Part shown: piece after piece, positions 4,151-62,918 of the stretch | Layout of the letters: every line of letters begins with the position of its first letter | How positions within the stretch are numbered: the stretch's first letter is position 1 | DNA from: a virus | Taxonomy: Duplodnaviria > Heunggongvirae > Uroviricota > Caudoviricetes | DNA: 64,000 nucleotides | Direction: 5' to 3' (one strand) | Virus record (IMG/VR): IMGVR_UViG_3300022468_000539 | Location: 30,703-94,702 of that record | Notes under the pieces: model-generated | What the model saw: the letters and a program-made list of their open reading frames with translations, nothing else | The model's database searches: none | Told to the model about the DNA's origin: nothing | Translations under genes and position numbers: made by a program

Positions 4151-4828
4151 ATGAAATTGAGCAAAGCAACTTTGGCGGTACTGAAGAATTTTTCTTCTAT
4201 CAATGGAAACGTCATGATCGAAGCAGGTAACTATCTGCACACCCGTACCGTGGAGCGTAACATGTACGCATGCGCAACCGTGGAAGACGAATTCCCCAAA
4301 ACCTTTGGTATCTATGATCTGTCACAACTTTTGGGTGTGATCAGTTTGTTCAGTGAACCTGAGTTGGAATTTGGTGAGTCTTCCCTGACCATTAGCCAAG
4401 GTAAGAACCGTGTTGAATACCGTTATGCATCATCAGACATTCTGGCTTTCCCAGACAAGAAACTGACTGAGCCTAGTGTTGATGCGACATTCACTCTGAC
4501 CGAAGAAAACCTGAAGTCTCTGCTGAAAGCCGGTGCTGTTTTGGGATCGCAGATGTTGCGTATCGGTGGTGATGGTAAGACCATCACATGTACACTGTTA
4601 ACACTGGATAAGGACAATAACCCATCCACATCGTTTAACACCTTCAGCGTTGATGTTGGTGACACTGATAGCACTTTTAGTGTAGATATTCGCCTTGAAA
4701 ATATTAAGATGATGTCTGGTAACTATGAAGTGTCTTTATCCAAAAAGAAGATCGCTAAATTTGCAAACACAGGCACATCATATACCCTGTATGTGGCAAA
4801 CGAAAAGTCTTCTAAGTGGGAAGACTAA
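4151..4828 (+). CDS. 45: sliding clamp, T4 gp45-like
   Basis: 225 aa. The N-terminus MKLSKATLAVLKNFSSINGNVM...FGIYDLSQLLGVISLF aligns with T4 gp45 (MKLSKDTTALLKNFATINSGIM...AIYDLNGFLGILSLV). Confidence 0.75.
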   Translation: MKLSKATLAVLKNFSSINGNVMIEAGNYLHTRTVERNMYACATVEDEFPKTFGIYDLSQLLGVISLFSEPELEFGESSLTISQGKNRVEYRYASSDILAFPDKKLTEPSVDATFTLTEENLKSLLKAGAVLGSQMLRIGGDGKTITCTLLTLDKDNNPSTSFNTFSVDVGDTDSTFSVDIRLENIKMMSGNYEVSLSKKKIAKFANTGTSYTLYVANEKSSKWED

Positions 4829-4830
4829 TA

Positions 4831-5037
4831 ATGGCTGAAGTTAAATCTCCACCTACTCTTTTTCGTGTTAACATCATGGAATATGAACGGGGTTGGGGTT
4901 GCAAAGTGGATGGTGTAGAGTATTTCGATACCGAAAAATCAGCCAAAGAATTTTGCACTAACTTCAACTCTCAGAACACATCCGAAAGCGTACCAAGCTG
5001 GTACATGGTTGCTGAATACATTGGACAGGTTTCCTAG
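4831..5037 (+). CDS. hypothetical protein
   Basis: ATG 2 nt after the gp45 stop; 68 aa. The ORF-track start at 4816 overlaps gp45. Confidence 0.3.
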   Translation: MAEVKSPPTLFRVNIMEYERGWGCKVDGVEYFDTEKSAKEFCTNFNSQNTSESVPSWYMVAEYIGQVS

Positions 5038-5158
5038 GGTGGGAAGAGCATCGTAACCGGACACGATGTAAAATAAAAGAAAGCGTGAACTATTTGAATG
5101 TTGACCACGAAAGGGTCAAGACGGACACATAACCGTCACGAATAACTATTGGATAAAT

Positions 5159-5470
5159 ATGACTCTTGTTACATCACAGATATCACGAATTGGTTTTACT
5201 GTAGAACGATTCGACAGTCGTTGGGTTCCATTCGAATACCGCATGTTTTACTGTCGTCAAAACAACGACTTGAAGAACAGCATTTTCTATAAAGAATGGG
5301 CACGTGAGTGCGTCAGTCTGATGTCACAATTTGGTTTCAATCACACTTTCAGAAAAATGGAAGTTGGAGAGAGCAGACGATACTTTGCTCATGTTGAGTT
5401 TTCACATTACCGAGACTATTGGGGTGAGAGTGATTACGACATGGAAATCATAAAAATGCGGCGCGTGTAG
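5159..5470 (+). CDS. hypothetical protein
   Basis: 103-aa ORF. Confidence 0.35.
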   Translation: MTLVTSQISRIGFTVERFDSRWVPFEYRMFYCRQNNDLKNSIFYKEWARECVSLMSQFGFNHTFRKMEVGESRRYFAHVEFSHYRDYWGESDYDMEIIKMRRV

Positions 5471-5475
5471 AAAAC

Positions 5476-5486
5476 TGTGTTATAAT
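5476..5486 (+). promoter_or_regulatory. extended -10 promoter TGTGTTATAAT driving the first tRNA pair
   Basis: TGnTATAAT match 9 nt upstream of the tRNA-like gene. Confidence 0.5.
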
Positions 5487-5495
5487 TTGTCTATT

Positions 5496-5616
5496 GCGAG
5501 GGTGGCGAAATAGGTAGACGCACTGGACTTTTACAGAATATCTTCCTAAGAGGGTATTCGATAAAATCCAACGGGGAGTGATCCTCATACGGGTTCGATC
5601 CCCGTCCCTCGTACCA
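5496..5616 (+). tRNA. tRNA-like gene, 121 nt: type-II (Leu/Ser-like) D-arm, perfect T-arm and acceptor stem, but a ~30-nt extra hairpin at the anticodon loop (intron?)
   Basis: Acceptor GCGAGGG/CCCTCGT with ACCA. D-arm TGGCGAAATAGGTAGACGC. T-arm ACGGG-TTCGATC-CCCGT. Insert hairpin AGAATATC..GGTATTCG. Anticodon-stem halves CTGGA / TCCAA are separated by the insert. Confidence 0.45.
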
Positions 5617-5618
5617 GT

Positions 5619-5692
5619 GGCGCACTGTCAGATTGGTTATGTACGGGATTGCAAATCCTGATAGATCGGTTCGATTCCGGTGTGCGCCTCCA
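5619..5692 (+). tRNA. tRNA-Cys (GCA)
   Basis: Acceptor GGCGCAC/GTGCGCC; anticodon loop TTGCAAA; GGTTATGTA D-loop as in E. coli tRNA-Cys; CCA encoded. Confidence 0.75.
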
Positions 5693-5718
5693 AGTGAAAC
5701 AAAACAGGAGTTATATTA

Positions 5719-6212
5719 TGTCTCAATTTAAAGTAGGTGATAAAGTTCGTCGCACAGAAGAAGGTGGCAGTGACGATAAGTTTGGTATATATGTTGGAAA
5801 AATTTATACTGTCTCCAGTAGCGGATCGTGCGGATCGTTCATTCTTTTAGAAGGTATAGCGGGTTCATGGAACTCCAACTATTTTGAGTTAGTGGATGAT
5901 AACGGTGAGTTTCAATCAAAAAAGCATCCTCACGCTGATCTGATCATTGCATGGGCTAACGGTGCTAGCATTGAGCAACTTGGTCAAGGCAAAAATGGAA
6001 AGTGGGTAGTTGTTTCGCAGCCATCTTGGGCTGTTAACTCTAAATTCCGTGTCAAGCCAAAAGTTGTTGAACCAGTTACCGCGAAGCGTAGAATTGCAGC
6101 AGTTGGATCAGCTATTGGTGATTACCTGACATGGTATACAGATGGTGTTCCCAATGTCGAAGTGACCTACAATCCAGAGACAAAAGAAATTCTGACTATC
6201 AAACAAATCTGA
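5719..6212 (+). CDS. hypothetical protein
   Basis: ATG preceded by AGGAG. The ORF-track start at 5649 lies inside tRNA-Cys, so the start was moved to 5719. Confidence 0.4.
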
Positions 6213-6214
6213 TT

Positions 6215-6556
6215 ATGGAACTAAAAATCAAGAAGGAACTTCGTACTACGAAGTCTGGTCAGCCTGAATTCTCAAATAAATTTATTGAGGTCAAGTATGA
6301 CATGGAACACAGGACAGCAACATTTCATAACCCTTATATTGACGTATACACGCATGAATTAAAAATATTTGCCAAGGGTCAATTTCCATCTGATGGTACA
6401 CCTGATCACAGTATAGCAAGAAATGGCTTGATGTCTTTCCTGTACTCTGATATAATTCATGAGTTGCATCTTTTGGCAAATGATATTTCACCTAGAAATA
6501 CAGATGCAATAAAAAGAATTCGACAAATGCAGCATGATTTGTCCACATGGGAATAA
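6215..6556 (+). CDS. hypothetical protein
   Basis: In-frame ATG 2 nt after the previous stop; 113 aa. Confidence 0.35.
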   Translation: MELKIKKELRTTKSGQPEFSNKFIEVKYDMEHRTATFHNPYIDVYTHELKIFAKGQFPSDGTPDHSIARNGLMSFLYSDIIHELHLLANDISPRNTDAIKRIRQMQHDLSTWE

Positions 6557-6946: not shown

Positions 6947-7180
6947 GGAAGTAATTAATCCTAGACCTAGTATAGTGTAGTTGGTAAGCACGTGCCCATT
7001 CGTAGGTTCGAATCCTACCACTTCTGTAATGGAAGTGTAGCCAAGAGGTCTAAGGCGGGTTCGAATCCCCTACATAAGGTCATATATAAATTTGCTTGTA
7101 GACGAAATTAGGTAAAGTCGCCGTGAAAACCGGCAAAAAATATCGAAAGATATTTGGTGGTTCGAATCCACTCCGGCAAA
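6947..7180 (+). ncRNA. three consecutive non-canonical tRNA-like modules (T-arm GGTTCGAATCC plus acceptor-like stems, no canonical anticodon arm)
   Basis: T-loops at 7007-7013, 7060-7066 and 7161-7167. Hairpins CACTTCT-GTAAT-GGAAGTG and AAATATC-GAAA-GATATTT. No ORF. Confidence 0.35.
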
Positions 7181-7213
7181 TTTGTGTTATAATTGATTGA
7201 AGACTAATATGAT

Positions 7214-7430
7214 GAGTGTATACCTTAATAAAACAGAGGCGAAGGAAAGAATCGCCAATGTGGTCTAAAGGGAACACTTCCAACATGGTATCGGAGAATA
7301 GGGCAGTAGTGACATAAGAGTGGTATCTTATGAATCGAAGTCGGGATAAGTACCAATCCCGCTAAACAGGAATCCGAACGATACCGGAGAAGATGTTTGA
7401 TTTTAGGTTCGAATCCTAATGTACTCACCA
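7214..7430 (+). ncRNA. 217-nt structured RNA with a tRNA-like acceptor stem (GAGTGTA/TGTACTC), T-arm and encoded ACCA; may be an intron-containing tRNA
   Basis: Perfect T-arm TTAGG-TTCGAAT-CCTAA. 3' end TGTACTC-A-CCA. Internal hairpins GGCGA..TCGCC, GGGAT..ATCCC, GGTATCG..CGATACC. Confidence 0.35.
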
Positions 7431-7460
7431 TATTAGTTTTAATGTTAATTTGGAGTTATT

Positions 7461-7904: not shown

Positions 7905-8029
7905 TTTTGTTGTGAAGGGGAATTGGTATACCCTACTGGTTGGATAATAGTGGGAAAGCGGTGTTTATCACCTTAAAGTAGCCCTCCTGTAAGCCGGTGC
8001 TTGTTTAGGTTCGAATCCTATCAACAAAA
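7905..8029 (+). ncRNA. 125-nt tRNA-like structured RNA (acceptor TTTTGTT/AACAAAA, T-arm TTCGAAT, extra hairpins)
   Basis: Acceptor complementarity and T-loop at 8010-8016; internal hairpins GGTG-TTTAT-CACC and AAGC-CGGT-GCTT. Confidence 0.3.
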
Positions 8030-8114
8030 AAAGAGCAAGTCGGGTAGCGCCCGAACAACTCAGATCAAGAGTTACATTGTTGATCCTGCGGGTGCAAGAA
8101 GTCCCGACCAAATT

Positions 8115-8204
8115 GGGGTGTTGGCCGAGTGGTCTAAGGCAGCGGTCTTGAAAACCGTCACTGGCGCAAGCTGGTCGTGGGTTCGAATCCTACACGCCCC
8201 GCCA
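8115..8204 (+). tRNA. tRNA-Ser (TGA)
   Basis: Type II: GGGGTGT acceptor, GCC-GAGTGGTCTAA-GGC D-arm, anticodon loop CTTGAAA, long variable arm, CCA encoded. Confidence 0.8.
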
Positions 8205-8325
8205 CTATATTATTAGGAAACAGTATGGCATTGCTAGAGTTTTGTTTTGCAATCTATCTAATTTTCAATGATCATCCAGTCATTGGAATAATTTTGTTGC
8301 TTGATTCTGTTTCACGTACATCTTA

Positions 8326-8359
8326 GTGCTATAATCATTGAAATACAAAAGAGGTAGCT
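8326..8359 (+). promoter_or_regulatory. early promoter-leader cassette (GTGCTATAAT + CATTGAAATACAAAAGAGGTAGCT)
   Basis: Cassette family. Confidence 0.5.
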
Positions 8360-8974
8360 ATGCCAACATTCCGCGAAAAAATGATTGATGCAGTTCAGAC
8401 ACAGGAGGGATTTGATGTAAATCCTGACGATTTCTTTTTTGAAACTGGTATTGGTGGAACTGACATCGATTATGAAAAGTTTGATGCGCGGTTTAAGAAA
8501 TATCCAGTTTATACATGGGTGTGTACCGACACTTCTGTTGGCATCTATGCCATTACACTCGATGGTGTACTCGTCGCATACACAACACAAAATGCCCGTA
8601 AAAACCCTGTAAACGTTTACTACTTTTCAAAGCTCATACAAGATTTGGTTGTTAAGGCGGTTTGCGAATGTGAACTTAACTGTGAATCTGAAAAGAATTA
8701 TAGTCTGGTTGATGAATCAATTCTTGATTCTGACTATGACAAGATCAACGCTTTTGAAAATCGCATGTTGGTAACTGAGTTCCCTGCATTGGTTTCCATG
8801 GGTCTGACTATTGAACAAAATGAAAACAAATTTATTGTGTTGAAAGACAGTGTTCGGATAAACGATTTCTCTCATGAAAGTATGGATACTGTTGAACAAT
8901 GCGCCAAGCATCATGTTAGTTATTCGTCTGATCCAGAATCTTTCATCAAACTATTTCTGTTGCCTGAAATGTAA
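8360..8974 (+). CDS. hypothetical protein
   Basis: 204-aa ORF following the cassette. Confidence 0.45.
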   Translation: MPTFREKMIDAVQTQEGFDVNPDDFFFETGIGGTDIDYEKFDARFKKYPVYTWVCTDTSVGIYAITLDGVLVAYTTQNARKNPVNVYYFSKLIQDLVVKAVCECELNCESEKNYSLVDESILDSDYDKINAFENRMLVTEFPALVSMGLTIEQNENKFIVLKDSVRINDFSHESMDTVEQCAKHHVSYSSDPESFIKLFLLPEM

Positions 8975-9679: not shown

Positions 9680-10023
9680 AAATGAGTAATCTGAAACTGT
9701 ATATCGCGGTTCTAGACGAGTTTCCAGACTATATGACACCTACCCTAGTGGCACATGCTGTTCTCGCTGCAGATCGCGAATTTGTAGGAACCAAACTGTA
9801 TGAACAATGGTTTGCTGATTCATTTAAGAAAGTTGTTGTTCGGGTCAACCAAAAAGAGTTTGACAAGATTAGTCAACTATTTGGTGTGCATCTGGCGCAC
9901 GAAAACAAGACACTTGGCGGTAAGAAAGCATGTGCTGTTGTATGCCCTCGCGAAGATGTGCCCAATGTATTGAAATTTGCTAAGACTTGGAAACCACTTC
10001 CGGCATCTAGTGAGGTCAGCTAA
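9676..10023 (+). CDS. hypothetical protein
   Basis: 115-aa ORF. Confidence 0.4.
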   Translation: MKMSNLKLYIAVLDEFPDYMTPTLVAHAVLAADREFVGTKLYEQWFADSFKKVVVRVNQKEFDKISQLFGVHLAHENKTLGGKKACAVVCPREDVPNVLKFAKTWKPLPASSEVS

Positions 10024-10109
10024 AGGTTAAGCTGTTGCCCTCGATATCAGAAAAAGGCGTCACTGATTGGCAACAAATTTTTGGTTCGATTCCAAAATCT
10101 CATACAAAC

Positions 10110-10368: not shown

Positions 10369-10721
10369 CACCACTGAATAAATCTTTTATTGGTGCCGCG
10401 AACACCAAACGTGCAAGTCTAAACGCTATCTTGATTCGCTCAAAAATTGACAAAATTGTCTATCCATCGTTCCATTTAGTGGAACGTATGGTTGAGCGAA
10501 ATATTGATGTTGTCGATGTTGCACGGATGACTGTGCCAATTGTCAAATACTTTCGAGAAACCACATTCAACGACAGAAGCTGTTTAGTTCTGTGGCGCGA
10601 CCTGAAGCTGGCGGCTGACATTCGGATTGGAACCGTTACTGGTAAACGTTCGATTATTTTGAAAACCATTGTTGATGATGTTTCTCGAAAAACTTTTGAT
10701 GAAACGTTCAAAATCGAATAA
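10365..10721 (+). CDS. hypothetical protein
   Basis: 118-aa ORF. Confidence 0.4.
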   Translation: MTPLNKSFIGAANTKRASLNAILIRSKIDKIVYPSFHLVERMVERNIDVVDVARMTVPIVKYFRETTFNDRSCLVLWRDLKLAADIRIGTVTGKRSIILKTIVDDVSRKTFDETFKIE

Positions 10722-10724
10722 AAC

Positions 10725-10765
10725 CGTGTTATAATTCAGTCATCGAAATTCAAAAGGTAAACAAA
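10725..10765 (+). promoter_or_regulatory. early promoter-leader cassette
   Basis: CGTGTTATAATTCAGTCATCGAAATTCAAAAGGTAAACAAA-ATG. Confidence 0.55.
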
Positions 10766-11002
10766 ATGACTACATTCATCACTTCTTACAGCCAGTTGAA
10801 CAATGGTGATCGTATTTCTTATGAATCTAATTGTGGTACACTAACTGCCACTGTGAGTCACATTCGAATCGGTAAGAATGGTCTTGGTAAGATGGTTCCA
10901 TTTTTGGGCCTGAATGTTGATGCAAAGAATGGTCGCAAGGCACATCGGCTTGAATTGCTTGGTGGTAATTCTTTGCCTATGTACAGAATTCAGAAACTGT
11001 GA
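10766..11002 (+). CDS. hypothetical protein
   Basis: 78-aa ORF. Confidence 0.4.
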   Translation: MTTFITSYSQLNNGDRISYESNCGTLTATVSHIRIGKNGLGKMVPFLGLNVDAKNGRKAHRLELLGGNSLPMYRIQKL

Positions 11003-11125: not shown

Positions 11126-11773
11126 ATGAGCGAAAAACAATTGATCAGTGTGACACGTGCTTTGGCTTTGTTGAAGCAAACCGACGAGCGTATTCAGCGC
11201 GCAATGAGCGACAAGTTCATTGATGTGTCTGTTGGTAAGGGTAAGAACCGCCGTGTTCAGCGTGGCGGTAGCGATACAGTTGATGTGGTCGAAAAGAACA
11301 TTCAGTCTGCTATCGACTCCGTGCGTGATTTGCTGTCTCGCCGTGCAGCTATCAAGGCAGCTATCGTTGCTTCGAACGCAAAGACTGGCCTGACTGTTGC
11401 CGGTGAATATGTGACTGTGGCAGAAGCTATCGAAATGAAGCGTTCTGTTGAGTTCAAGCGTCAACTGGTTAACGCCATGAAGACACAGTATCTTCAGGCT
11501 AACAATACAGTTGCTACTCTGAATGTGAAGGTGGAAGCAAGTATTGATGCTATCATCAATACCATGATGGCTTCTGATAAATCTACAAAGGTCGATCCTT
11601 CGGTTTTGGCTGCGATTGGTGAACCCCAACGCAATCAAAGTGAAGCAGCTTTGATTGATCCTGCAAATCTGTCTACCTTCATCAAGAAGTTGGAAGACGA
11701 GATTTCCGAGATTGACACCGAACTGGATTTCTTGTTGAGTGAAATCAACGCGAAGACACATATTCTGGTATAA
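11126..11773 (+). CDS. hypothetical coiled-coil protein (215 aa)
   Basis: Good RBS AAAAGGAAAA; Ala/Lys/Glu-rich heptad-like sequence. The 260-aa antisense ORF 11081..11863 is taken as spurious. Confidence 0.5.
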   Translation: MSEKQLISVTRALALLKQTDERIQRAMSDKFIDVSVGKGKNRRVQRGGSDTVDVVEKNIQSAIDSVRDLLSRRAAIKAAIVASNAKTGLTVAGEYVTVAEAIEMKRSVEFKRQLVNAMKTQYLQANNTVATLNVKVEASIDAIINTMMASDKSTKVDPSVLAAIGEPQRNQSEAALIDPANLSTFIKKLEDEISEIDTELDFLLSEINAKTHILV

Positions 11774-12044
11774 ATAACATTTCAACGTCCTAGGTGAACA
11801 GTCTAAGATGACCTTTCGAGCAGAGAGAATCAAAACATCTGCAACTTTGCTTAAAAAGTACAAATTAAATCTGGAACTTCAAAATTCAAAGATCAAAGTT
11901 TATGCTTCAAAGTTTAAGTTTTAAGTTTTAGAATATCATGTTTTAAAATTGAAAGTTAAAAGGTCTTCAAATCCTGATCAACGGTTTTATGGTGCTGGAG
12001 TCGCACCTAGATTGTACCGCAGGCTGCTTAGTGGGGTTGAAATT

Positions 12045-12129
12045 GGGAGAGTGGCGGAATAGGTAGACGCGCCGGTTTAAGAAGCCGGTACCGTAAGGTG
12101 TGCAGGTTCGATTCCTGTCTCTCCCACCA
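12045..12129 (+). tRNA. tRNA-Leu, type II (anticodon loop TTAAGAA; AAG or TAA reading ambiguous)
   Basis: GGGAGAG acceptor; GCG-GAATAGGTAGA-CGC D-arm as in E. coli tRNA-Leu; long variable arm; CCA encoded. Confidence 0.65.
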
Positions 12130-12136: not shown

Positions 12137-12207
12137 GCGGGTAAGCTAGAGGTTAGTCGCCAGCCTTCCAAGCTGTGCAGAGTGGAGTTCGATTCTCCCT
12201 ACCCGCT
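12137..12207 (+). tRNA. tRNA-Gly (TCC)
   Basis: Acceptor GCGGGTA/TACCCGC; anticodon loop CTTCCAA; T-loop TTCGATT; no encoded CCA. Confidence 0.6.
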
Positions 12208-17408: not shown

Positions 17409-17494
17409 CTGGGATTAGCTCAGTCTGGTCAGAGCACCTGATTTGGATTCAGGAGGCGAAGTCGTATACGTAGGTTCGAATCCTACATCCCAGA
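17409..17494 (+). tRNA. tRNA with Pro anticodon (TGG) but a type-II long variable arm (unusual)
   Basis: Acceptor CTGGGAT/ATCCCAG; D-arm GCTC-AGTCTGGTCA-GAGC; anticodon stem CCTGA/TCAGG; loop TTTGGAT; 16-nt variable hairpin; no CCA. Confidence 0.55.
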
Positions 17495-17594
17495 CACAAT
17501 ACTTTGAAGCGATTTCGGAATGAAATACTGAGTTCGAAATCTAACGGTTGTAAGTGACGATGAAAAACGGAACTTCCATTTTAAAGTTCTTTGT

Positions 17595-18083: not shown

Positions 18084-18473
18084 ATGGAAAAAACTTACGA
18101 ATGTCTACACTGTAGTAAAATTTGCATTATGCATCGGGCAAAGGTTAACAAATATTGTTCAAACCAATGTCAAAAAGATTATGAATTCTATAAGTCAGTG
18201 GAATCTGGGACAGCATCGCATAGAGTTATAAAACGGTATTTGATTGAAAAGAATGGATCAAAATGTTTTGAATGCGGGATCAGTGATTGGAATGGTTTAT
18301 CTTTGGTAATGGAGTTGGAGCATATTGATGGCAATTCTGAAAACAATAGTTTAGCCAATGTTAAACTATTGTGTCCAAATTGTCATTCCCAGACGCCAAC
18401 ATATAAGGCTAAAAATGTTGGAAATGGAAGGCATTCGCGTCGAATTCGATATCAAAGTGGAAAAAGTTATTAG
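18084..18473 (+). CDS. HNH homing endonuclease
   Basis: ELEHIDGNSENNSLANVKLLCPNCHSQT (H-N-H with a Zn-binding CxxC pair); N-terminal CxxC..CxxC. Embedded in the tRNA array; the stop abuts the next tRNA. Confidence 0.6.
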   Translation: MEKTYECLHCSKICIMHRAKVNKYCSNQCQKDYEFYKSVESGTASHRVIKRYLIEKNGSKCFECGISDWNGLSLVMELEHIDGNSENNSLANVKLLCPNCHSQTPTYKAKNVGNGRHSRRIRYQSGKSY

Positions 18474-18561
18474 CTGGATTGTCTGAGTGGTTGAAAGAAA
18501 CGGTTTTGTAAGCCGTTGGGTTAACTCCCCATCGCAGGTTCGAATCCTGTGTCCAGCACCA
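18473..18561 (+). tRNA. type-II tRNA (Ser-like TCT-GAGTGGTTGAA-AGA D-arm); anticodon loop TTTGTAA, read as TGT or GTA (ambiguous)
   Basis: Acceptor GCTGGAT/GTCCAGC; long variable arm; T-arm GCAGG-TTCGAAT-CCTGT; CCA encoded. Confidence 0.55.
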
Positions 18562-26559: not shown

Positions 26560-27492
26560 ATGTTTGAAAATTTAGTTTGGGAACAACGCTATAGACCAAA
26601 GACTATTAGCGACACTATTTTGCCGCCATCCACCAAGAAAATGTTGAACGATATTATCAAGACCGGTAATATTCCCAATATGTTGTTTGCTGGCTCCGGT
26701 GGTATCGGTAAGACAACTGCAGCACGTGCTATTGCTGATGAAGTTGATGCAGAAATGCTTTACATTAACGCATCGCTTGAAGGTAATATCGATACGATCC
26801 GCACAACGCTCACACAGTTCGTGAGTACCGTTTCCATGGAAGACCGTCGCAAAATTGTTTTGCTTGATGAATCCGATTATCTCTCGAATTCCGCACAGCC
26901 TGCTTTACGTGGGTTTCTGGATGAATTCTCCAGTAATGCATCTTTCATTTTCACCTGCAACTTCCCACAGCGTATTATTGATCCGTTGATTTCTCGTTTG
27001 CAAGTTATCGACTTCAAATTTGCCAAGACCGAAAAGGTCGATGCAATGAAGCAGATGCTATCACGTGCGGAATATGTTCTCACAACCGAAGGCATCACCT
27101 ATGATAAAAAGGCTGTCGCAACACTGGTTGGTAAGTATTTTCCTGATTTCCGTAAGACTCTGGGCCAACTTCAGAAGTTCTCTACTTCCGGTGAGATTAC
27201 ATCCGATATCCTGAGTTTTGGGGATGGTTCTGACATTGATGAACTGATTGGCTACGTGAAGGATAAAAACTTCTCAAAATGCCGCCAGTGGGTCGCTAAT
27301 AGCTCTCCAGACGCATCAACGTTCTATCGTGCTATCTACGACAAGCTGCTGCCTATTTTGGTACCTGCAAGCATTCCTCCTGTCATTTTGGCTATTGCTG
27401 AATCTCAGTATCGTGCAAGTGCTACAATCGATCCAGAAATCAACACGGTTGCTTTCCTGATCCAACTAATGTCAACAGCACAATTTAAATGA
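26560..27492 (+). CDS. 44: clamp-loader large subunit, T4 gp44-like (AAA+)
   Basis: WEQRYRPKTISD, Walker A GSGGIGKTT, DFRKTLGQL all matching T4 gp44. Confidence 0.75.
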   Translation: MFENLVWEQRYRPKTISDTILPPSTKKMLNDIIKTGNIPNMLFAGSGGIGKTTAARAIADEVDAEMLYINASLEGNIDTIRTTLTQFVSTVSMEDRRKIVLLDESDYLSNSAQPALRGFLDEFSSNASFIFTCNFPQRIIDPLISRLQVIDFKFAKTEKVDAMKQMLSRAEYVLTTEGITYDKKAVATLVGKYFPDFRKTLGQLQKFSTSGEITSDILSFGDGSDIDELIGYVKDKNFSKCRQWVANSSPDASTFYRAIYDKLLPILVPASIPPVILAIAESQYRASATIDPEINTVAFLIQLMSTAQFK

Positions 27493-27941
27493 AATACACT
27501 AGATCGATATTAGGATTTTCTGGCGAGTATCGATTTCTTTCTAACTTCTACCCAATTGAGTTTGAAGTAGATGGTGAGTTGTATACATCATCAGAGCAAT
27601 ACTACATGGCTGCTAAATGTGCAGACCCTCTGGAACGTGCTAAGATAATGGCTTTCGACAAACCAAGTCTAATCAAGAAATTGGGTAGCAAGGTTAAGCT
27701 GGTTGAAGGTTGGGATGATGGATTGCGCGACAAAGCGATGATGACTGCTTTGAAGGCTAAATTCTCGACCCACTTAAAAGGTAGTCTGTATATGACTACC
27801 GGTGCCTATCTAGAAGAAACCAATCATTGGAACGATACCTATTGGGGTGTCTGTGACGGTGTTGGTCAAAATAAATTAGGTCGCATGTTGATGTGGTTGC
27901 GTGACCATCATCTGTTTAAAAATTTCGAGGATTGTCCTTAA
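27489..27941 (+). CDS. NADAR-domain (YbiA-like) protein
   Basis: GEYRFLSNFYPIEFEVDGELYTSSEQYYMAAK is the NADAR/DUF1768 signature. Inserted between the 44 and 62 homologues. Confidence 0.55.
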   Translation: MKYTRSILGFSGEYRFLSNFYPIEFEVDGELYTSSEQYYMAAKCADPLERAKIMAFDKPSLIKKLGSKVKLVEGWDDGLRDKAMMTALKAKFSTHLKGSLYMTTGAYLEETNHWNDTYWGVCDGVGQNKLGRMLMWLRDHHLFKNFEDCP

Positions 27942-29487: not shown

Positions 29488-29772
29488 ATGAGTATCGTGC
29501 AAACATCCCAAATCAACTTCCCTAACGATCCCGCAACCCTGAAGACCATTAAGGATGCATTGTTTGAAATCAGCGCATCCATGACACGTGTAGAGGGTGA
29601 AAAAGATTTCCAGAAAGAAGCACTGAGTGATCTGGCTGAGAAAACCGAAGTGCCGGTCAAGTTTTTAAAGACATGTGCCTCCATTTACCATCGCCAGAAT
29701 AAAGACCAAGTAGAAGGTGATAAAGAGGCAGTTTTTGAGCTTTATGACGCTATTTTTGGAGAGGCTTCTTAA
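29488..29772 (+). CDS. hypothetical protein
   Basis: 94-aa ORF. Confidence 0.4.
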   Translation: MSIVQTSQINFPNDPATLKTIKDALFEISASMTRVEGEKDFQKEALSDLAEKTEVPVKFLKTCASIYHRQNKDQVEGDKEAVFELYDAIFGEAS

Positions 29773-30694
29773 TAGCGTACCAACCTCTAAAAGGTACAAC
29801 TTTATCTAAATGGTGGTTCATTTTAATAGGTGATCCACCATTTCTATATGATATTCGTAGTGCCGATTCTGGTAGACCATTTTCATTACAGTATTCGATA
29901 AAGTTACCGACTGCAGTGTGACGCAAAATACCAAGTTCATCAAAAATTTCAATAATCGAAGCAGTATTTGAGTTTGAACCTGATACCGCCAGTTTGTGAT
30001 TTTCTTTATGTGTTTCTGACCATTCGTTAGGAATACCTATTTTAGAATCTGAGATTTTTTTTCTATGTTCTTGTGAAAGCGGCACACCTTTATTAGGATT
30101 TGAATATGATGGATTTAAATCAGACATCTTCTGATTTTTATTCCAAACAGGCTTTTCTTTGCGTGTCTTTTTAAATTTTTCGATTGTTTCTTCTGAATGT
30201 TTCTTACCTTTCATTCCAGAAACACGACCTTTGAGTGATGCACTTATCTTTTTCTTTGTTGCTTCCGAAGGCTTTCTACGTTTTTTGACACCTGCGCGAA
30301 TATTTTCTAGTGCTGCTCCAGTTCTTTTTGGGTATTTCTTACCCTTTAATTTTGAAGCAACACCTTTGAGTGGATTATACTTTTCATCATATGCCATTTT
30401 TGATGCAAAGGCTCTGTTAATATAAAGTGGATTATTTGGAGCATTAACTGCTTTCTGCAACTTATTTTCTTTCTCTGTTGCCTCATCTCTCGTTTTAAAT
30501 GTTTTTAAAATGATTGTTTTGAAAAGGTGAGGGCTTGTTGCTCTTTCTGAAGCCCAAATGCTTTTAAACATTTTTGATGAAACACTACCGTTGTAGTTTT
30601 CATTTTGTATCCGGTTTACAGTTGTTGAGCCGATATAAAAAGGTGGAAGTTTGTTACCACTATAGATAGTGAGATAGACGCAATAAATAGACAT
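29750..30694 (-). CDS. GIY-YIG homing endonuclease (Seg-like) with NUMOD3 repeats
   Basis: IYCVYLTIYSGNKLPPFYIGST (GIY..YIG), catalytic R/E region, repeated S.E.R.KIS NUMOD3-like motifs. Antisense to, and immediately upstream of, gene 43. Confidence 0.6.
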   Translation of the reverse strand: MSIYCVYLTIYSGNKLPPFYIGSTTVNRIQNENYNGSVSSKMFKSIWASERATSPHLFKTIILKTFKTRDEATEKENKLQKAVNAPNNPLYINRAFASKMAYDEKYNPLKGVASKLKGKKYPKRTGAALENIRAGVKKRRKPSEATKKKISASLKGRVSGMKGKKHSEETIEKFKKTRKEKPVWNKNQKMSDLNPSYSNPNKGVPLSQEHRKKISDSKIGIPNEWSETHKENHKLAVSGSNSNTASIIEIFDELGILRHTAVGNFIEYCNENGLPESALRISYRNGGSPIKMNHHLDKVVPFRGWYAIKKPLQK

Positions 30695-33391: not shown

Positions 33392-33457
33392 ACGATAAAT
33401 ATAAGCATGGTTACAGGTAGACCATGCTTATTAATCAACACTACCAAAAGGAAACTT

Positions 33458-34357
33458 ATGTTTAGACTACTCGTTAAAACCCATAACAAAACGGGTTTAA
33501 ATTATCTCTGCGTGACAGAGAAAGAAAATTATGAAAAGTATGCTGGCTCTGGTCTTTACTGGAAGCGTCATATTAAAGAACATGGAAGCGACATAACTAC
33601 TGTTGTTCTTTATGAATCTGAAACTAAAACACAAGATTTTATAGATACATGTCTATACTACTCTACTATTTTAAATGTAGTTGAATCATCCGAATGGGCG
33701 AACCTAATACCTGAAAATGCTAATTCTGTTGGATATAGAAGTTCTTCTAATGAAGAAACTATATTCAAGATAAAAAGTGGTTTAAAAAGATTTTATGAGT
33801 CTGAAGAATCTATCAAAACTCGTGATTCCATTTCCAAAAGAATGAAACATCTATGTTCCGATCCGGTATATAGAGAAGAGATGGCTTTACGTCGATCTGA
33901 ATATGTTGCCAATATCGAAAATCGTGAGACAATATCTAAGCAAATGAAAGATTTTTGGAAAAATGCAGATTCAGAATTTAAACACTCGCATAGCGAGAAA
34001 ACATCTATAGGCCGTTTGCTGATGTCTGAAGATGCTAAGAAATCTAGAGCAGACAAAATCACAAAAAGTTTTGCTAATTCTGAAAAGAGAAAAGAATTTG
34101 AGCTAACGATGAAAACTGACAGATTGGGTGGCAAAAACCCATATGCTAGGCAAGTTTATTATTATGGTAAAATTTTTGATACTCGAACATCTTTTTATGA
34201 CTATATAAAATCAATAGGTGTAAGTAAAAATTCAGTTATTATGAAGCTCAGATATAAAACCGATCCTGAATGCTATTTAGTAGATAGAGTTAACGATAGT
34301 CTCTCCAAAACTATCAACCAAACTAAGGAAATAAAATATGAATCCACTAATGAGTAA
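33458..34357 (+). CDS. GIY-YIG homing endonuclease with NUMOD3 repeats (second copy)
   Basis: KTGLNYLCVTEKENYEKYAGSG...WKRHIKEHG resembles the I-TevI/Seg catalytic core; S.E.R.KIS repeats. Start moved to the RBS-supported ATG at 33458. Confidence 0.55.
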   Translation: MFRLLVKTHNKTGLNYLCVTEKENYEKYAGSGLYWKRHIKEHGSDITTVVLYESETKTQDFIDTCLYYSTILNVVESSEWANLIPENANSVGYRSSSNEETIFKIKSGLKRFYESEESIKTRDSISKRMKHLCSDPVYREEMALRRSEYVANIENRETISKQMKDFWKNADSEFKHSHSEKTSIGRLLMSEDAKKSRADKITKSFANSEKRKEFELTMKTDRLGGKNPYARQVYYYGKIFDTRTSFYDYIKSIGVSKNSVIMKLRYKTDPECYLVDRVNDSLSKTINQTKEIKYESTNE

Positions 34358-57453: not shown

Positions 57454-57900
57454 TCATACCAATCCATTTTTATCCTCCCATGGTAATACAGGGTCAGCGA
57501 TCCAGCGCCGACGCATACGATCCATTGCCTCTGCAGGCACATTGTGAATAGAACCGAAAGAGCCATGCACGGAAATCACTTGCGGGATAATTCCAAGTTG
57601 CAGTGCAATTTCAAAGTAAGGGTTCAGTTCACGCTGAGTAGTGAAAGTGTTGGATACAACAACACTCCAACCTTCTTGCAGCTTTTGCGCCACATTAGAC
57701 TCACACCAGTGATGTGCAGCACCGAGCTTATTCAGGTCGAAGTTGTAGTTACCTTGCTTGTCATAGAAGTACATGTCAGCTTCATAATGACGCCATCCAC
57801 CATCCATAGCAATCTTTCGGGCAATGGTACTTTTACCCGAGCCCGGCAAACCCCTCACAATCACAAAGTAGGGTTTGGTCTTACCATCCGATGCTTGCAT
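57454..57900 (-). CDS. P-loop kinase (polynucleotide kinase-like, AAA_33 type)
   Basis: Walker A VRGLPGSGKST. Size and pattern are like the kinase domain of T4 Pnk (CPGSGKST). Start moved to the RBS-supported ATG. Confidence 0.45.
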   Translation of the reverse strand: MQASDGKTKPYFVIVRGLPGSGKSTIARKIAMDGGWRHYEADMYFYDKQGNYNFDLNKLGAAHHWCESNVAQKLQEGWSVVVSNTFTTQRELNPYFEIALQLGIIPQVISVHGSFGSIHNVPAEAMDRMRRRWIADPVLPWEDKNGLV

Positions 57901-58096
57901 AATAAATTTCCTTCTTGTAGTTGAAAGCAGCACGAACTGCTTCTGGATATACGACATACCACAAATTGTCCAATGCAGACATTGTGGTTCCACGAACTGT
58001 GCAACGACCTTTACTGTCTGTCTCACGCATCAACTCTTTGTGCATTGCTTCAATGATTTGTTCGCCAATTTTGATTGCGTCAGACTTAGTGATCAT
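57881..58096 (-). CDS. hypothetical protein
   Basis: 71-aa ORF. Confidence 0.3.
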   Translation of the reverse strand: MITKSDAIKIGEQIIEAMHKELMRETDSKGRCTVRGTTMSALDNLWYVVYPEAVRAAFNYKKEIYYASIGW

Positions 58097-58127
58097 TTTG
58101 AACCTCGTTTGAATTTAGATGTATGGA

Positions 58128-59090
58128 TTATACACCAATTTTGTACGGTTTCAAAATATCTGTCTTATTTTCCACAAACAAGAAGTCATCCAAGAAATCT
58201 CGTTTCACTTCAGACAGTCGCAAATAATTAAGTGACGCATATTCACGAAACCAGCCGGATGTCAGAGTCGTACAAATCTTCTGCAACGCTTTCCGGTACA
58301 GTTCTTGCATGTAATCACCATCAAATCCAACACCATCTTCCCGATAGCGGTTAATTCGAATACTTTTGCGGTAAGGCAAATACCCACGCTCCAAAGCAAT
58401 CACCCAAGCCTCTTCCATGACACATGCATCTTTGACAGCATCAGGTGCATTCTCAAACAGATCACCAGATGATAAAACTTCACCCTTAGCGATATGCATA
58501 TACGCAGGCTTTTCGCCTATAGCAATAGCAGCATGAATTGAGTCATGATCATAGATATATTGTACACCATCATTCGAAAAGAATTCAGATTTACTGACAT
58601 TCAGTTTGATAGGTGGTCGATTATATGTCTCTTTCTCTCGCAACTCCAGAATCTGTTTCAGCGGTTCAGAAACTCTAGACTTGTACTGCTTTGACATGTA
58701 GGTTTTCAGCTTCTCCATATTTTTATGGAAATGCATAGAATCCCGATACCGGTGTGATTCACGGATAACATACATCAAGCTAAGTGGTGCCACATTATAA
58801 AGTTTTTCAGGATTCCCTACAGAATCCATCAAATCAAGAATTGCAGCACCAGAAGAACCTTTGAAAGCCAGTTCAACTTCGATAATACTAATCTTGTTTG
58901 TTTCGTGTTTGACCCGAATAACAAGATGGTTGCTGCTAATCGGATATTGTTCGATGATCTTTCCACCAAAGCCATCGAGTAATTGCTTCACAGCATTAGG
59001 CCGAACAATAAAATCCCAATCCCGATTTTCATCGATATCGAAATAGTTGTATTCAGCACGTGATCCGATTAGAACAGCAGTATTTTTCAT
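58128..59090 (-). CDS. hypothetical protein with a pol-beta-type nucleotidyltransferase-like N-terminus
   Basis: LIGSRAEYNYFDIDENRDWDF (G-S ... D-x-D pattern). Confidence 0.3.
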   Translation of the reverse strand: MKNTAVLIGSRAEYNYFDIDENRDWDFIVRPNAVKQLLDGFGGKIIEQYPISSNHLVIRVKHETNKISIIEVELAFKGSSGAAILDLMDSVGNPEKLYNVAPLSLMYVIRESHRYRDSMHFHKNMEKLKTYMSKQYKSRVSEPLKQILELREKETYNRPPIKLNVSKSEFFSNDGVQYIYDHDSIHAAIAIGEKPAYMHIAKGEVLSSGDLFENAPDAVKDACVMEEAWVIALERGYLPYRKSIRINRYREDGVGFDGDYMQELYRKALQKICTTLTSGWFREYASLNYLRLSEVKRDFLDDFLFVENKTDILKPYKIGV

Positions 59091-59548
59091 TAGTAACCTG
59101 ACGAAGACCAGTATTGATCCGAGTTATTGTAAGAAGATGTAGTGGAGTCACCGAAGTTATAAGAGAAGCCCACATAAACAATTTTTGGATCGACGCTGTT
59201 AACCAGACGCTCAATTTCGCTTTCCAGACTATTCAGTTGGTTGCGAATTTCAGAAAGTCGAACGTTGACTGCAGCAGCCTTTTCTTGTTCTTTATCTTCC
59301 TTGCGCGCCTTTTCTTCAGCAATACGCTGTGCTTCCTTACGGGCTTGCTCTTTGCGCTCTTCTTCCTTACGGGCTTCTTCAGCCTTATCCGCTTCCTGCT
59401 TCAGTTTAGCGCGGCGTTGTTTTTCGGCATTGGCAGTTTTCAACAAAGCAGCAATCGCTTTGTCGTTCAATTGGCTCATATCCAATTCAACATCCTGAAG
59501 AGTAGATGCGGAAGTGGTGAGTTGCGAAGTTGTTCTACGAGTTACCAT
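59090..59548 (-). CDS. K/E/R/A-rich coiled-coil protein
   Basis: AEKQRRAKLKQEADKAEEARKEEERKEQARKEAQRIAEEKARKEDKEQEKAAA low-complexity helix. Confidence 0.4.
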   Translation of the reverse strand: MVTRRTTSQLTTSASTLQDVELDMSQLNDKAIAALLKTANAEKQRRAKLKQEADKAEEARKEEERKEQARKEAQRIAEEKARKEDKEQEKAAAVNVRLSEIRNQLNSLESEIERLVNSVDPKIVYVGFSYNFGDSTTSSYNNSDQYWSSSGY

Positions 59549-59572
59549 TTCAGTTTCCTTAAATTAAATGCA

Positions 59573-60142
59573 TCAGTCTCCGTGATGCGTTGACCTTGTT
59601 TCAAATTGGAGACACTTACGAATTTCTTCCAGAGAATATGGTTTCATATCCCCTGCAGCACGTGTATCAATACCAACATCCATACACTTTCCGGTGTTTG
59701 GCTGTTGATAGTTTGAATGCCGATGACCATGCAGATGTGTTGAACCGTATCTTGACGAATCCCATGATTCAATCGGGAAATGACACAGGATGTAAGAAGT
59801 CTTCCCAATCTTCAATTTCTTGTAGTCTTGGATAGACGCAAACACGCCCATGAATCGCAATTCGCTTTCATCATCATGGTTACCGAGAATCAGATGATGG
59901 TTGCAATGATCAGAAATCCGGCGCAGCAGCTTTTTGGTTTCATCATATTTGCCAAAGGTAATGTCGCCCAGATTCCACAGGTCGCCACCCTCTGGAACGG
60001 TGTTAATCACATTATAAATGATCAGTTCATTCATTTCTTCGAGGGTCGAACCCTTACGCGAGAATGGGCAGAATTGCTGAATTCTTTTATGGAAAAGATG
60101 CCAATCCGAAGTGAAGTATGGTTGTTGTTCAATTTTATTCAT
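59573..60142 (-). CDS. calcineurin-like metallophosphoesterase
   Basis: SDWHLFH (GDxH-like), GDITFG (GDxxDRG-like) and GNHDDE motifs. Leaderless arrangement: TGGTGTATAAT is 6 nt before the ATG. Confidence 0.55.
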   Translation of the reverse strand: MNKIEQQPYFTSDWHLFHKRIQQFCPFSRKGSTLEEMNELIIYNVINTVPEGGDLWNLGDITFGKYDETKKLLRRISDHCNHHLILGNHDDESELRFMGVFASIQDYKKLKIGKTSYILCHFPIESWDSSRYGSTHLHGHRHSNYQQPNTGKCMDVGIDTRAAGDMKPYSLEEIRKCLQFETRSTHHGD

Positions 60143-60149
60143 ATGTTGA

Positions 60150-60455
60150 TTATACACCAAAAATCTTGTTGTATTCACTTTTTGAAATTTTTTTGTAGTA
60201 GCCATGTTCAGAAAGTGATACATATTCCCCATTTAAAATTTTCTCTCTTAGGGGTTTAAACAATTCCTCAACAGTGAATTCCTCATATGCGCGATATTGT
60301 ACCATATCATGAGCATCCTGTAATGTTATCTCATTTTTTGCCATACATTCTCGCGTTAAAGCACCAATAAATGATTGAACAATTAGTAATGTAGTTTGAT
60401 CTAAACGTGATCCAACAACCTTTTTGTCAAATTCTTCGCGGAGTCTTGACTCCAT
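60150..60455 (-). CDS. hypothetical protein
   Basis: 101-aa ORF. Confidence 0.35.
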   Translation of the reverse strand: MESRLREEFDKKVVGSRLDQTTLLIVQSFIGALTRECMAKNEITLQDAHDMVQYRAYEEFTVEELFKPLREKILNGEYVSLSEHGYYKKISKSEYNKIFGV

Positions 60456-60456
60456 T

Positions 60457-60774
60457 TCAAGACTCCAAAACTTTAATCATGTGATCAACCCAAGCGTGGC
60501 GGTATGCTTGACGCTTTTCATACGTGCTAAGGTCGATATCTTTATTAAGATATAACCATCCAGTAATAAACATTTCACCTTTAAGTTGTTTTCGAATCCA
60601 ACCTTTAACCAATGCCTTTGATATTACATCACAATCCGTGTCATCAACTGCCCAACATACATATATTTGCTTGTCACTTTTTATGTCGAAGAAATTTCCA
60701 GATAATAGTTTTTTCTTCGCTTCCTTCAAGCATTGAGCCATAGCCAAATGTTGTTCACGTGTTAAATTTGCCAT
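60457..60774 (-). CDS. hypothetical protein
   Basis: 105-aa ORF. Confidence 0.35.
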   Translation of the reverse strand: MANLTREQHLAMAQCLKEAKKKLLSGNFFDIKSDKQIYVCWAVDDTDCDVISKALVKGWIRKQLKGEMFITGWLYLNKDIDLSTYEKRQAYRHAWVDHMIKVLES

Positions 60775-60781
60775 AATAGCC

Positions 60782-61717: not shown

Positions 61718-61757
61718 GATTTACCTTTCGAGTTTCGATAAACGAATTATAACACAT
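61718..61757 (-). promoter_or_regulatory. early promoter-leader cassette on the minus strand driving rnlA
   Basis: Reverse complement reads CATGTGTTATAATTCGTTTATCGAAACTCGAAAGGTAAATC-ATG. Confidence 0.5.
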
Positions 61758-61930
61758 GTTTCTAGCGTTTTACAACGGGGACACAAAATTCCTCAGTTTG
61801 CCTCTTTGCTAAAAACTGAGACTGTCCAGCAGGAATTTTTGTTTCGCATTCTTGCTTTGTTGGGTATATCTCTACATAAGTCGGTACACAAAATCGTGTA
61901 CATGCAACAAAAATAAGTGCCCAACCCATA

Positions 61931-62515: not shown

Positions 62516-62656
62516 ATTTTTTACTCCATTTTGTTAATTTCAGAAACAGACCTTCTACCAAGACGATAGCGAGAATCCAGAAAGCCATAAAGACCGACAC
62601 AAAGCCGACAACAATTATGCCAACGATAAAATAAACCAGATCAAACAATGTTCGCA

Positions 62657-62917: not shown

Positions 62918-62918
62918 C

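Follow-up and report, generated by a model that had tools for sequence, protein, structure and literature searches.

The interrupted tRNA-Leu gene and its insert

The window analysed here is the whole 64,000-nucleotide (nt) stretch at positions 30,703 to 94,702 of IMG/VR record IMGVR_UViG_3300022468_000539. It derives from an uncultured T4-like phage with ~40% G+C, and at 5496-5616 it carries a class II tRNA-Leu gene interrupted in its anticodon loop by a 32-nt hairpin-forming insert (Table 1). There are no close relatives of the window among 50,697 GenBank phage records, and a megablast search with positions 4500-6500 against cultured phages gave no match. Searches with the window's own proteins as queries for DNA beyond the 64 kb recovered only a 934-nt contig.

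Table 1. Coordinates, strand and basis of the principal features in the window
Feature	Position	Strand	Basis
Extended -10 promoter-like motif TGTGTTATAAT (putative promoter)	5476-5486	+	Ends 9 nt before the tRNA 5' end
Class II tRNA-Leu gene, interrupted	5496-5616	+	Sequence, Rfam tRNA model, orthologs
5' exon of tRNA-Leu(UAA): acceptor 5' strand, D-arm, CUGGA, C32 U33 U34	5496-5530 (end may be one base earlier, repeated U)	+	Rfam alignment, intron-less orthologs
32-nt intervening sequence UUACA-GAAUAUCUUC-CUAA-GAGGGUAUUC-GAU	5531-5562 (alternative 5530-5561)	+	32/34-nt indel relative to L010, L144 and L145
Conserved 10-bp hairpin GAAUAUCUUC/GAGGGUAUUC, tetraloop CUAA	5536-5559 (arms 5536-5545, 5550-5559)	+	Pairing in four sequences, RNAalifold
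3' exon: A35-A38, UCCAA, long variable arm, T-arm, acceptor 3' strand, A73, CCA	5563-5616	+	Rfam alignment, orthologs
tRNA-Cys(GCA)	5619-5692	+	2 nt past the CCA; ARAGORN, Rfam 46.3 bits
P-loop kinase, candidate 5'-end healing enzyme	57454-58026	-	Pfam AAA_33, E = 2e-10
Calcineurin-type metallophosphoesterase, candidate 3'-end healing enzyme	59573-60232	-	phrog_547 'phosphoesterase', E = 1.5e-48
T4 gp63/Rnl1-type RNA ligase, candidate sealing enzyme	60782-61717	-	phrog_562, E = 3.7e-43; phrog_8238 'RNA ligase', E = 4e-15

The gene has the layout GCGAGGG-UG-GCG-AAAUAGGUAGA-CGC-A-CUGGA-(39 nt)-UCCAA-C-GGGGAGUGAUCCUC-AU-ACGGG-UUCGAUC-CCCGU-CCCUCGU-A-CCA. The cloverleaf features of a class II tRNA-Leu are all present: a 7-base pair (bp) acceptor stem (GCGAGGG/CCCUCGU, with a G1·U72 pair), a D-arm with an 11-nt loop on a 3-bp stem, a long variable arm, a T-arm of the GTTCGAnnC type (ACGGG-UUCGAUC-CCCGU), and A73 followed by an encoded CCA. 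This agrees with the original prediction, made from the sequence alone, of a canonical acceptor stem, type-II D-arm, T-arm and encoded ACCA, and the Rfam tRNA model (RF00005) gives 5496-5613 a score of 41.6 bits, above the cut-off of 29. Between the anticodon stem halves CUGGA and UCCAA lie 39 nt, where a 7-nt loop is expected, and the Rfam model places a 33-nt insertion in the anticodon loop. A contiguous anticodon within a 7-nt loop with U33 is absent from the gene as it stands and appears once 32 nt are deleted in silico, and no other registration gives a canonical cloverleaf without the removal of ~32 nt. ARAGORN does not call the gene at its default settings and does call it with the intron option. 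The 121-nt RNA has a folding energy of -48.8 kcal/mol (z = -5.0, with 0 of 200 shuffles as stable), and in the predicted fold the anticodon stem runs on into a long arm. ARAGORN, in default or intron mode, finds no second tRNA for anticodon UAA in the window, and TTA and TTG together make up 45% of its leucine codons.

A hairpin between the two anticodon-stem halves had been predicted and is indeed seen, at 10 bp slightly longer than first described; it is present in one copy in the window, with none expected by chance. Alignment with three uninterrupted orthologs (at loci L010, L144 and L145, described below) places the insert between the wobble nucleotide 34 and nucleotide 35, or between 33 and 34. 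When it is removed in silico the loop reads CUUAAAA, and ARAGORN at default settings calls an 89-nt tRNA-Leu(taa). The predicted arm consists of a 1-nt bulge, a 5-bp helix that holds both junctions, a 2x2 internal loop (CA/GA) and the 10-bp hairpin. The 5' junction lies nearer to the anticodon stem and the 3' junction farther from it, which is the reverse of the stagger in a bulge-helix-bulge.

Related inserts and alleles of the locus

Insert-bearing and orthologous genes at other loci (designated by L numbers) were found by ARAGORN in intron mode (L013), by a pattern scan (L121), and among the neighbours of a flanking protein (L142, L144, L145). Together with the window gene, three of these carry distinct inserts (Table 2).

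Table 2. Insert-bearing tRNA genes, with exon and insert sequences at the 34|35 boundary
Gene	tRNA	Rfam bits	5' exon	Insert	3' exon	Insert length
Window	Leu(UAA)	41.6	CUU	UUACA-GAAUAUCUUC-CUAA-GAGGGUAUUC-GAU	AAAA	32 nt
L142	Leu(UAA)	46.4	CUU	UUACA-GAGUAUCUUC-UAAAAA-GAGGGUACUC-GAU	AAAA	34 nt
L121	Leu(tag) i(36,32)	48.7	CUU	AUGCA-GAAUAUCUUC-UAAC-GAGGGUAUUC-GAC	AGAA	32 nt
L013	Asn(gtt) i(36,34)	39.3	CUG	AUACG-GAACAUCUUC-GAAAAA-GAGGGUGUUC-AAA	UUAA	34 nt

Single sequences allow one or two registrations, and 34|35 is the sole boundary that fits all four members; with it, 5 nt precede and 3 nt follow the 10-bp hairpin in every case. The L121 sequence is a 12.5-kb stretch of a 104-kb contig in which none of the 34 open reading frames (ORFs) matches the window, and its hairpin is ~90% identical nonetheless. 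Its anticodon stem differs from that of the other three members. The L121 tRNA-Leu(UAG) gene is followed 30 nt downstream by a permuted, two-piece tmRNA gene (11356-11625; Rfam RF04321, 66.7 bits).

The arm is conserved as an RNA structure. In the three helices of the four-sequence alignment 91% of cells pair, compared with 35-54% when the partner strand is slid, and six pairs are changed on both sides, a number matched by none of 500 shuffles. The 10-bp hairpin has standard pairs in all 40 cells, with two compensatory changes (A-U to G-C and U-A to C-G), two invariant U·G pairs and 8 of 10 pairs invariant in sequence, and the CA/GA internal loop is likewise conserved. RNAalifold independently yields the same structure, and a cloverleaf with an extended arm is also the unaided fold of the L013 (z = -4.8) and L121 (z = -4.3) genes. 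A covariance model built from three members scores 65-71 bits in the sense orientation, compared with 13-26 bits for the antisense strand.

No further copies were found by this model in ~230 kb comprising the window and the related loci, and exact-pattern scans of IMG/VR, a metagenome collection and reference genomes added only L121 and its duplicate L134; the other matches lacked a tRNA context or scored poorly with the model and were discarded. Sensitive blastn searches with the window, L121 and L013 genes matched ordinary parts of tRNAs and never the insert. The insert family is real and rare, is confined to tRNA anticodon loops, and is constrained at the RNA level; as read from these sequences, at least three different uncultured-phage tRNA genes have inserts of 32-34 nt at one shared position. 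A dispersed DNA repeat of the REP or MITE kind was considered and rejected, given the single copy in the window, the strand-specific structure, and the invariable location in a tRNA anticodon loop in the sense orientation.

Alleles of the tRNA-Leu locus were sought in related phages, a comparison that the original prediction had proposed, and both uninterrupted and insert-bearing forms were found. Relatives were identified through the protein encoded directly downstream of the gene (5718-6212) and their contigs then fetched, and the identities given here are those of this flanking protein to its window counterpart. Loci L008, L009 and L010 (59%) have an uninterrupted 89-nt class II tRNA-Leu with the loop UUUAAAA. 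The genes at L144 (46%) and L145 (88%, the closest relative) are also uninterrupted and have the loop CUUAAAA, with the anticodon stem of L145 altered by two compensatory pairs. The 32-nt insert is present in L011 (100%) as in the window, and the 34-nt variant in L142 (50%). In L001 (48%) the gene is truncated after nucleotide 30 and followed by a nuclease-like ORF of 246 amino acids (aa) and a class-I tRNA(UAA), and in L003-L007 (75%) only a class-I tRNA(UAA) is found. The same promoter motif precedes these alleles, the orthologous gene being preceded by TGTGNTATAAT in L008, L142, L144, L145 and L001.

A six-way alignment shows a clean indel of 32 or 34 nt within the anticodon loop. The uninterrupted orthologs score 55-57.5 bits with the Rfam tRNA model, have the anticodon UAA and are ordinary tRNAs, and the 5' half of the window gene is nearly identical to theirs. 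The loop CUUAAAA of L144 is the exact product of a 32-nt deletion from the window gene. Exon differences between alleles preserve the structure (pair 6:67 changes from A-U to G-C, and pair 49:65 from G-C to A-U). Because the locus has uninterrupted orthologs and the indel falls cleanly within the anticodon loop, the window gene is, judged by its sequence, a tRNA-Leu(UAA) gene with an insert after U34 or, equivalently given the repeated U, after U33. Gene identity, insert position, insert family and RNA structure are all well supported.

Leaving the insert aside, L145 and the window gene differ at five positions, of which four make up the two compensatory anticodon-stem pairs and one is in the T-loop; the difference looks like a conversion-like recombination patch. 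The presence of the insert is patchy and does not track relatedness, as it is absent from the 88% relative and present in the 50% relative.

The L001 locus (7915-8800) has a different organisation. Its tRNA-Leu is cut off after nucleotide 30, and the 246-aa ORF that follows has a weak match to PD-(D/E)XK/Holliday-resolvase-like proteins (phrog_9019, E = 6e-5). The stop codon of this ORF overlaps a class-I tRNA of 77 nt with a UAA anticodon, the sole tRNA of the locus in L003-L007, and the arrangement looks like a nuclease cassette that carries its own replacement tRNA. The ORF sits 4-5 nt upstream of the insertion point and has no homolog in the window. A further tRNA-like gene (GGGUGUG...CACACCC-ACCA, with a T-arm) is present in L001 (8810-8925), L142 (~1010-1105) and L144 (~1285-1370); its D-loop is 18-19 nt longer in L001 and L144 than in L142, a further case of a short insertion in a tRNA-like RNA from this phage group.

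Possible removal of the insert

Several features of the insert-bearing genes bear on whether the insert is removed. After removal in silico, ARAGORN at default settings calls Leu(taa), Leu(tag) and Asn(gtt) tRNAs of 89, 75 and 84 nt respectively. The rejoined loops are all of 7 nt and of the form C32-U33-NNN-A37-A38, and the rejoined anticodon agrees with the tRNA body: A73 and a Leu-type D-arm accompany UAA and UAG, and U1-A72 and G73, which are the signature of bacterial tRNA-Asn, accompany GUU. As asparaginyl-tRNA synthetase (AsnRS) reads the anticodon, the Asn-type acceptor end of L013 together with its split G|UU is meaningful only if the two halves are joined. The L013 gene retains a Leu-type D-arm and the anticodon stem of the window gene, and its composition suggests that an interrupted Leu-type gene was turned into the present one while selection for decoding acted on it. 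Every phage region seen has the interrupted gene as its sole gene with that anticodon.

The reading we favour, and hold to be somewhat probable, is that the insert is a protein-spliced mini-intron, which an endonuclease would cut out and an Rnl1-type ligase would reseal. In T4, Rnl1 seals tRNAs that have been broken in the anticodon loop. The window encodes a candidate ligase of this type as well as candidate end-healing enzymes (Table 1). The ligase ORF covers positions 24-307 of the 377 in phrog_562 ('RNA ligase and tail fiber protein attachment catalyst') and matches no Pfam model; the phosphoesterase ORF matches Pfam Metallophos at E = 8e-4, below the family cut-off; and the kinase ORF matches phrog_505 'polynucleotide kinase' (E = 4.8e-9) and phrog_2071 (E = 1.8e-35). 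Kinase and phosphoesterase are separate ORFs near the ligase, in a cluster at 57.4-61.7 kb, and their healing role is putative, as is a partnership of the ligase with this pre-tRNA.

A copy of TGTGTTATAAT (61746-61756) lies directly upstream of the RNA ligase gene. The window has 12 copies of the motif TGTGNTATAAT, 30-fold more than the 0.38 expected, at sites that include 5476, 6750, 7183, 17203 and 61746 (minus strand). Many RNA genes and the gene for the RNA ligase have a copy ahead of them, and the motif probably represents the early promoter type of this phage. The Leu-Cys tRNA pair is also present in L008 and L145, and tRNA-Leu and tRNA-Cys are probably on one transcript.

In the splicing pathway that we propose, the gene would be transcribed together with tRNA-Cys from its own extended -10 promoter, and the ends would be trimmed as usual. 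Sequence and covariation show that the insert lengthens the anticodon stem into an arm with a weak junction helix, a 2x2 loop, the 10-bp hairpin and a small loop. A putative endonuclease would recognise the hairpin and the internal loop and cut 5 nt upstream and 3 nt downstream of the hairpin; the halves would be kept together by the tRNA body while kinase, phosphoesterase and Rnl1-type ligase heal and seal them, with an 89-nt tRNA-Leu with the loop CUUAAAA as the product. The patchy distribution among relatives suggests that the insert is gained or lost through recombination between co-infecting phages, and it may be kept because it splits the target of nucleases that attack the tRNA gene. 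More speculatively, the locus could be contested by homing-type nucleases, with a spliceable insert shielding the gene by splitting their target site. We also put forward, tentatively, that this would be a third kind of tRNA splicing, after group I self-splicing and the bulge-helix-bulge type, in which a hairpin-measuring endoribonuclease acts with phage RNA-repair enzymes, a protein-dependent pathway new to phage-infected bacteria.

Several observations weigh against splicing. The closest relative, L145, is without the insert, which is therefore dispensable at this locus. The junctions are 2 bp apart, with 2-nt 5' overhangs in the predicted helix, a geometry that would suit neither RNase III nor the splicing endonuclease of archaea; the reversed stagger and the 5' overhangs led us to reject an RNase III substrate. 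With only four distinct insert sequences known, few events underlie the covariation. Canonical tRNAs with matched anticodons would also result if the insertion into functional genes were recent. No candidate for the splicing endonuclease was found among the window ORFs with Pfam and PHROGs, and the RNA-ligase cluster is ordinary equipment of T4-like phages and so circumstantial.

The insert could instead be a selfish or immunity element, or have come with a recombination patch, that inactivates the tRNA-Leu gene, leaving it dead or dying, and may persist by breaking a nuclease recognition site. The locus is a recombination hot spot, as would suit such an element: the gene is truncated and joined by a nuclease-like ORF and a replacement class-I tRNA(UAA) in L001, only the replacement is found in L003-L007, L145 has no insert and a patch-like anticodon-stem difference, the presence of the insert among relatives is patchy, and phage tRNA genes are dispensable accessories. 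We nevertheless consider inactivation unlikely, as the compensatory changes keep the hairpin paired on the tRNA sense strand only, with the U·G pairs invariant, as all four distinct copies are at 34|35 in tRNA genes with none elsewhere in the ~230 kb, as L013 has apparently been remodelled for decoding, and as the interrupted genes are the sole ones with their anticodons in the regions seen. Still more doubtful is that the 121-nt species functions unspliced as a tRNA-like RNA, whether a nuclease decoy, a leucine-chargeable non-decoder or a protein-binding scaffold comparable to the stable tRNA-like RNAs of T4 or to Y-RNA-like RNAs. The conservation of the hairpin beyond the needs of pairing does suggest a protein-binding site, the same region holds other non-canonical tRNA-like RNAs (6960-7183 and 7195-7432, with a weak YrlA match), and E. 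coli leucyl-tRNA synthetase reportedly has no need of the anticodon arm in minimal-substrate studies. The AsnRS identity elements of L013 (G73 and GUU) are, however, brought together only by removal of the insert, every member rebuilds a perfect 7-nt loop with U33, A37 and a body-matched anticodon, and the insert-free orthologs are ordinary tRNAs. The decoy or regulatory mimic raised in the original prediction is thus the less likely outcome, since the Asn acceptor end and split G|UU make sense only with the insert removed.

Known classes of intron account poorly for the element. An archaeal or eukaryal type, with a bulge-helix-bulge cut by an EndA-family endonuclease, might be expected from a short anticodon-loop insert that pairs with loop nucleotides, and a separate gene at 10010-10105 has a 22-nt hairpin that ARAGORN puts at 37/38 in its orthologs. 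The original prediction had likened the position to that of such introns, but the alignment with the three uninterrupted orthologs gives 34/35 (or 33/34) and not 37/38, there are no 3-nt bulges 4 bp apart, and the junction stagger is the mirror image of a bulge-helix-bulge. No EndA/Sen-family endonuclease was found among ~12,000 residues of window ORFs with Pfam or in PHROGs scans of the window, which covers roughly one third of the phage genome. We hold this class to be very improbable. The same low standing applies to a self-splicing or self-cleaving RNA, be it a remnant or mini group I intron at U34|A35 or a small ribozyme. This site in tRNA-Leu(UAA) is the classical group I intron site of cyanobacteria and plastids, and the 5' exon ends in U in three of four members. 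At 32-34 nt, however, the insert is too short for a group I intron, as first predicted: the catalytic core (P3-P8, ~200 nt or more) is absent, the Rfam intron (Intron_gpI) and ribozyme families give no match even with the threshold relaxed to E <= 1, the last insert base is U, U, C or A and not G, and L013 has G before the 5' junction. By eye, no hammerhead or other ribozyme motifs, Ire1-type twin loops or direct repeats for polymerase hopping were seen in the four sequences. Least credible is an ochre suppressor, the tRNA-Stop(tta) with a 30-nt intron that the ARAGORN intron option reports for the window gene and L142; it needs a shifted anticodon stem, a registration that does not fit all four members, the uninterrupted orthologs read UAA (decoding the Leu codons UUA and UUG), and TAA, which ends 23 of 37 sampled ORFs, is the most frequent stop. 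Orthology and stop-codon usage led us to reject this label.

Genomic setting and relation to known systems

The window encodes a gp45-like clamp, a clamp loader, RegA, UvsX, a family B DNA polymerase, a gp41-like helicase, gp32 and DenV, together with a CCA-adding enzyme and several homing-endonuclease-like ORFs. Between ~5.4 and 24 kb, small plus-strand genes are interspersed with at least 17 tRNA genes. The minus-strand RNA-repair-like cluster (57454-63600) also holds a DUF7275/DUF7277 protein (58128-59090), with a nucleotidyltransferase-like GS...DxD motif noted by eye, and a macro-domain protein (63148-63600), and a NADAR-domain ORF is at 27489-27941. Homing-endonuclease-like genes are numerous. 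An HNH endonuclease ORF (18084-18473; several PHROGs, best E = 4e-23) ends on the first base of a tRNA-Thr, and ORFs at 29750-30694 (minus strand) and 33407-34357 have the look, by eye, of GIY-YIG homing endonucleases, with a NUMOD3 match in the first only.

The region is rich in other unusual tRNA-like RNAs. A second interrupted gene with a class-I body is present in the window (10010-10105), in L012 (13613-13708) and in L013 (12697-12792). ARAGORN puts its 22-nt hairpin (AUCAGAAAAAGGCGUCACUGAU) at the canonical 37/38, as 'Ser(cga) i(37,22)', and the gene is 97% identical in the three phages, in which identity between the neighbouring proteins is just 59-75%. Nucleotide 37 would be a U, which is unusual; Rfam does not detect the gene, and the fold of minimum energy differs from a cloverleaf. 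A conserved RNA of ~220 nt is found at 7195-7432 of the window and in L001 (~10440-10680), L012 (~11590-11815) and L013 (~10700-10880). It has its own TGTGTTATAAT motif ahead of it, a T-arm, and a terminal helix that stays complementary though its sequence varies between phages; the central ~100 nt (approximately alignment columns 112-200) are almost invariant. It belongs to no Rfam family and is not recognisable as a tRNA, tmRNA or group I intron.

Two nested tRNA-like modules at 6960-7080 have D-arm and T-arm motifs, with the acceptor 3' strand ahead of the 5' strand; a weak match to YrlA (Y-RNA-like) at 6995-7059 scores 23.9 bits against a cut-off of 69, and the region is conserved in L001 and L012. 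The class II cloverleaf at 7088-7183 (z = -2.4) has the anticodon loop UGAAAAC, with G in place of U33, and its orthologs in L001 and L012 are called 'tRNA-Phe(aaa)' by ARAGORN; it is probably a non-decoding tRNA-like RNA. A by-eye reading of 7908-8031 as an interrupted tRNA was dropped, as folding gives it no support (z = 0.44). Long variable arms are normally limited in bacteria to Leu, Ser and Tyr tRNAs, and are seen here in tRNA-Pro(UGG) (17409-17495) and in one of two tRNA-Thr(UGU) genes (18473-18561), both also in L013; because of these arms their aminoacylation identity is uncertain. A tRNA-Leu at 12045-12129 has the anticodon AAG, with an A34 that is unusual for bacteria, and is followed by a Gly(UCC)-like tRNA (12137-12207; 27.1 bits against the Rfam cut-off of 29) that ARAGORN misses in the window.

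The insert shares features with several known systems. The group I introns of bacterial and plastid tRNA-Leu(UAA) genes occupy the same site in the same tRNA and likewise vary in presence among relatives, but are ~200-300 nt long, self-splicing, end in G and have a conserved core, whereas the phage insert is 32-34 nt and coreless. Archaeal and eukaryal tRNA introns, which are processed by EndA/Sen and the RtcB or Trl1 ligase, are likewise short, lie in the anticodon loop and extend the arm, and presumably share with it the use of endonuclease and ligase; they are at 37/38 with a bulge-helix-bulge, whereas the insert is at 34/35, lacks the motif, has a reversed stagger and is found in a bacteriophage. 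In the T4 repair pathway, in which tRNA broken by host PrrC is restored by T4 Pnkp and Rnl1, the parallels are that the phage described here also encodes an Rnl1-type ligase, a kinase and a phosphoesterase, and that the proposed nick beside the wobble base would be an Rnl1-type substrate. In T4, however, a host defence enzyme breaks a host tRNA and nothing is excised, whereas here 32 nt would be cut from a phage precursor at two sites. The splicing of XBP1/HAC1 mRNA by Ire1 also involves a very short hairpin-defined intron (26 nt in XBP1), a protein endonuclease and a tRNA ligase, but it is eukaryotic, acts on mRNA, and cuts in consensus 7-nt loops, and such twin loops are absent from the phage insert.

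T4 species 1 and 2 and the bacterial YrlA are non-decoding RNAs with tRNA-like modules, the T4 species lying among phage tRNA genes. Similar oddities are present 1.4 kb downstream in the window, whereas the interrupted tRNA-Leu gene is set apart by its complete tRNA body and its uninterrupted orthologs. Free-standing homing endonucleases are known in phage tRNA clusters, as with T4 SegB (PMC2330249). As in homing of the SegB type, or of introns without an endonuclease gene, the tRNA-Leu locus has alternative alleles among relatives, which include the nuclease ORF within the gene (L001) and the patch near the site (L145). Unlike the SegB-type cases, no endonuclease gene is linked to the mini-intron, and homing here is conjectural.

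Protein-spliced tRNA introns are regarded as an archaeal and eukaryal trait, and to our knowledge, and in the literature searched, the tRNA introns reported from bacteria and phages are all self-splicing; no report of a short, non-group-I (non-self-splicing) intron in a phage or bacterial tRNA gene was found in that literature. The expectation that such an insert would be out of place in a phage was borne out. Conserved and structured, 32-34 nt long and at one fixed position in several phage tRNA genes, the insert fits neither the self-splicing nor the archaeal/eukaryal class, and the hairpin inserts look like a type of tRNA intron for which the literature searched has no description. If they are not spliced, they would be either a site-specific element by which tRNA genes are disabled or a new RNA in the shape of a tRNA, both of them unusual. 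If they are spliced, they would reveal a new RNA-processing activity, and working phage tRNA genes would be escaping the standard tRNA finders. The phage ligase and end-healing enzymes would then routinely mature the phage's own tRNAs, besides repairing the damage done by host nucleases.

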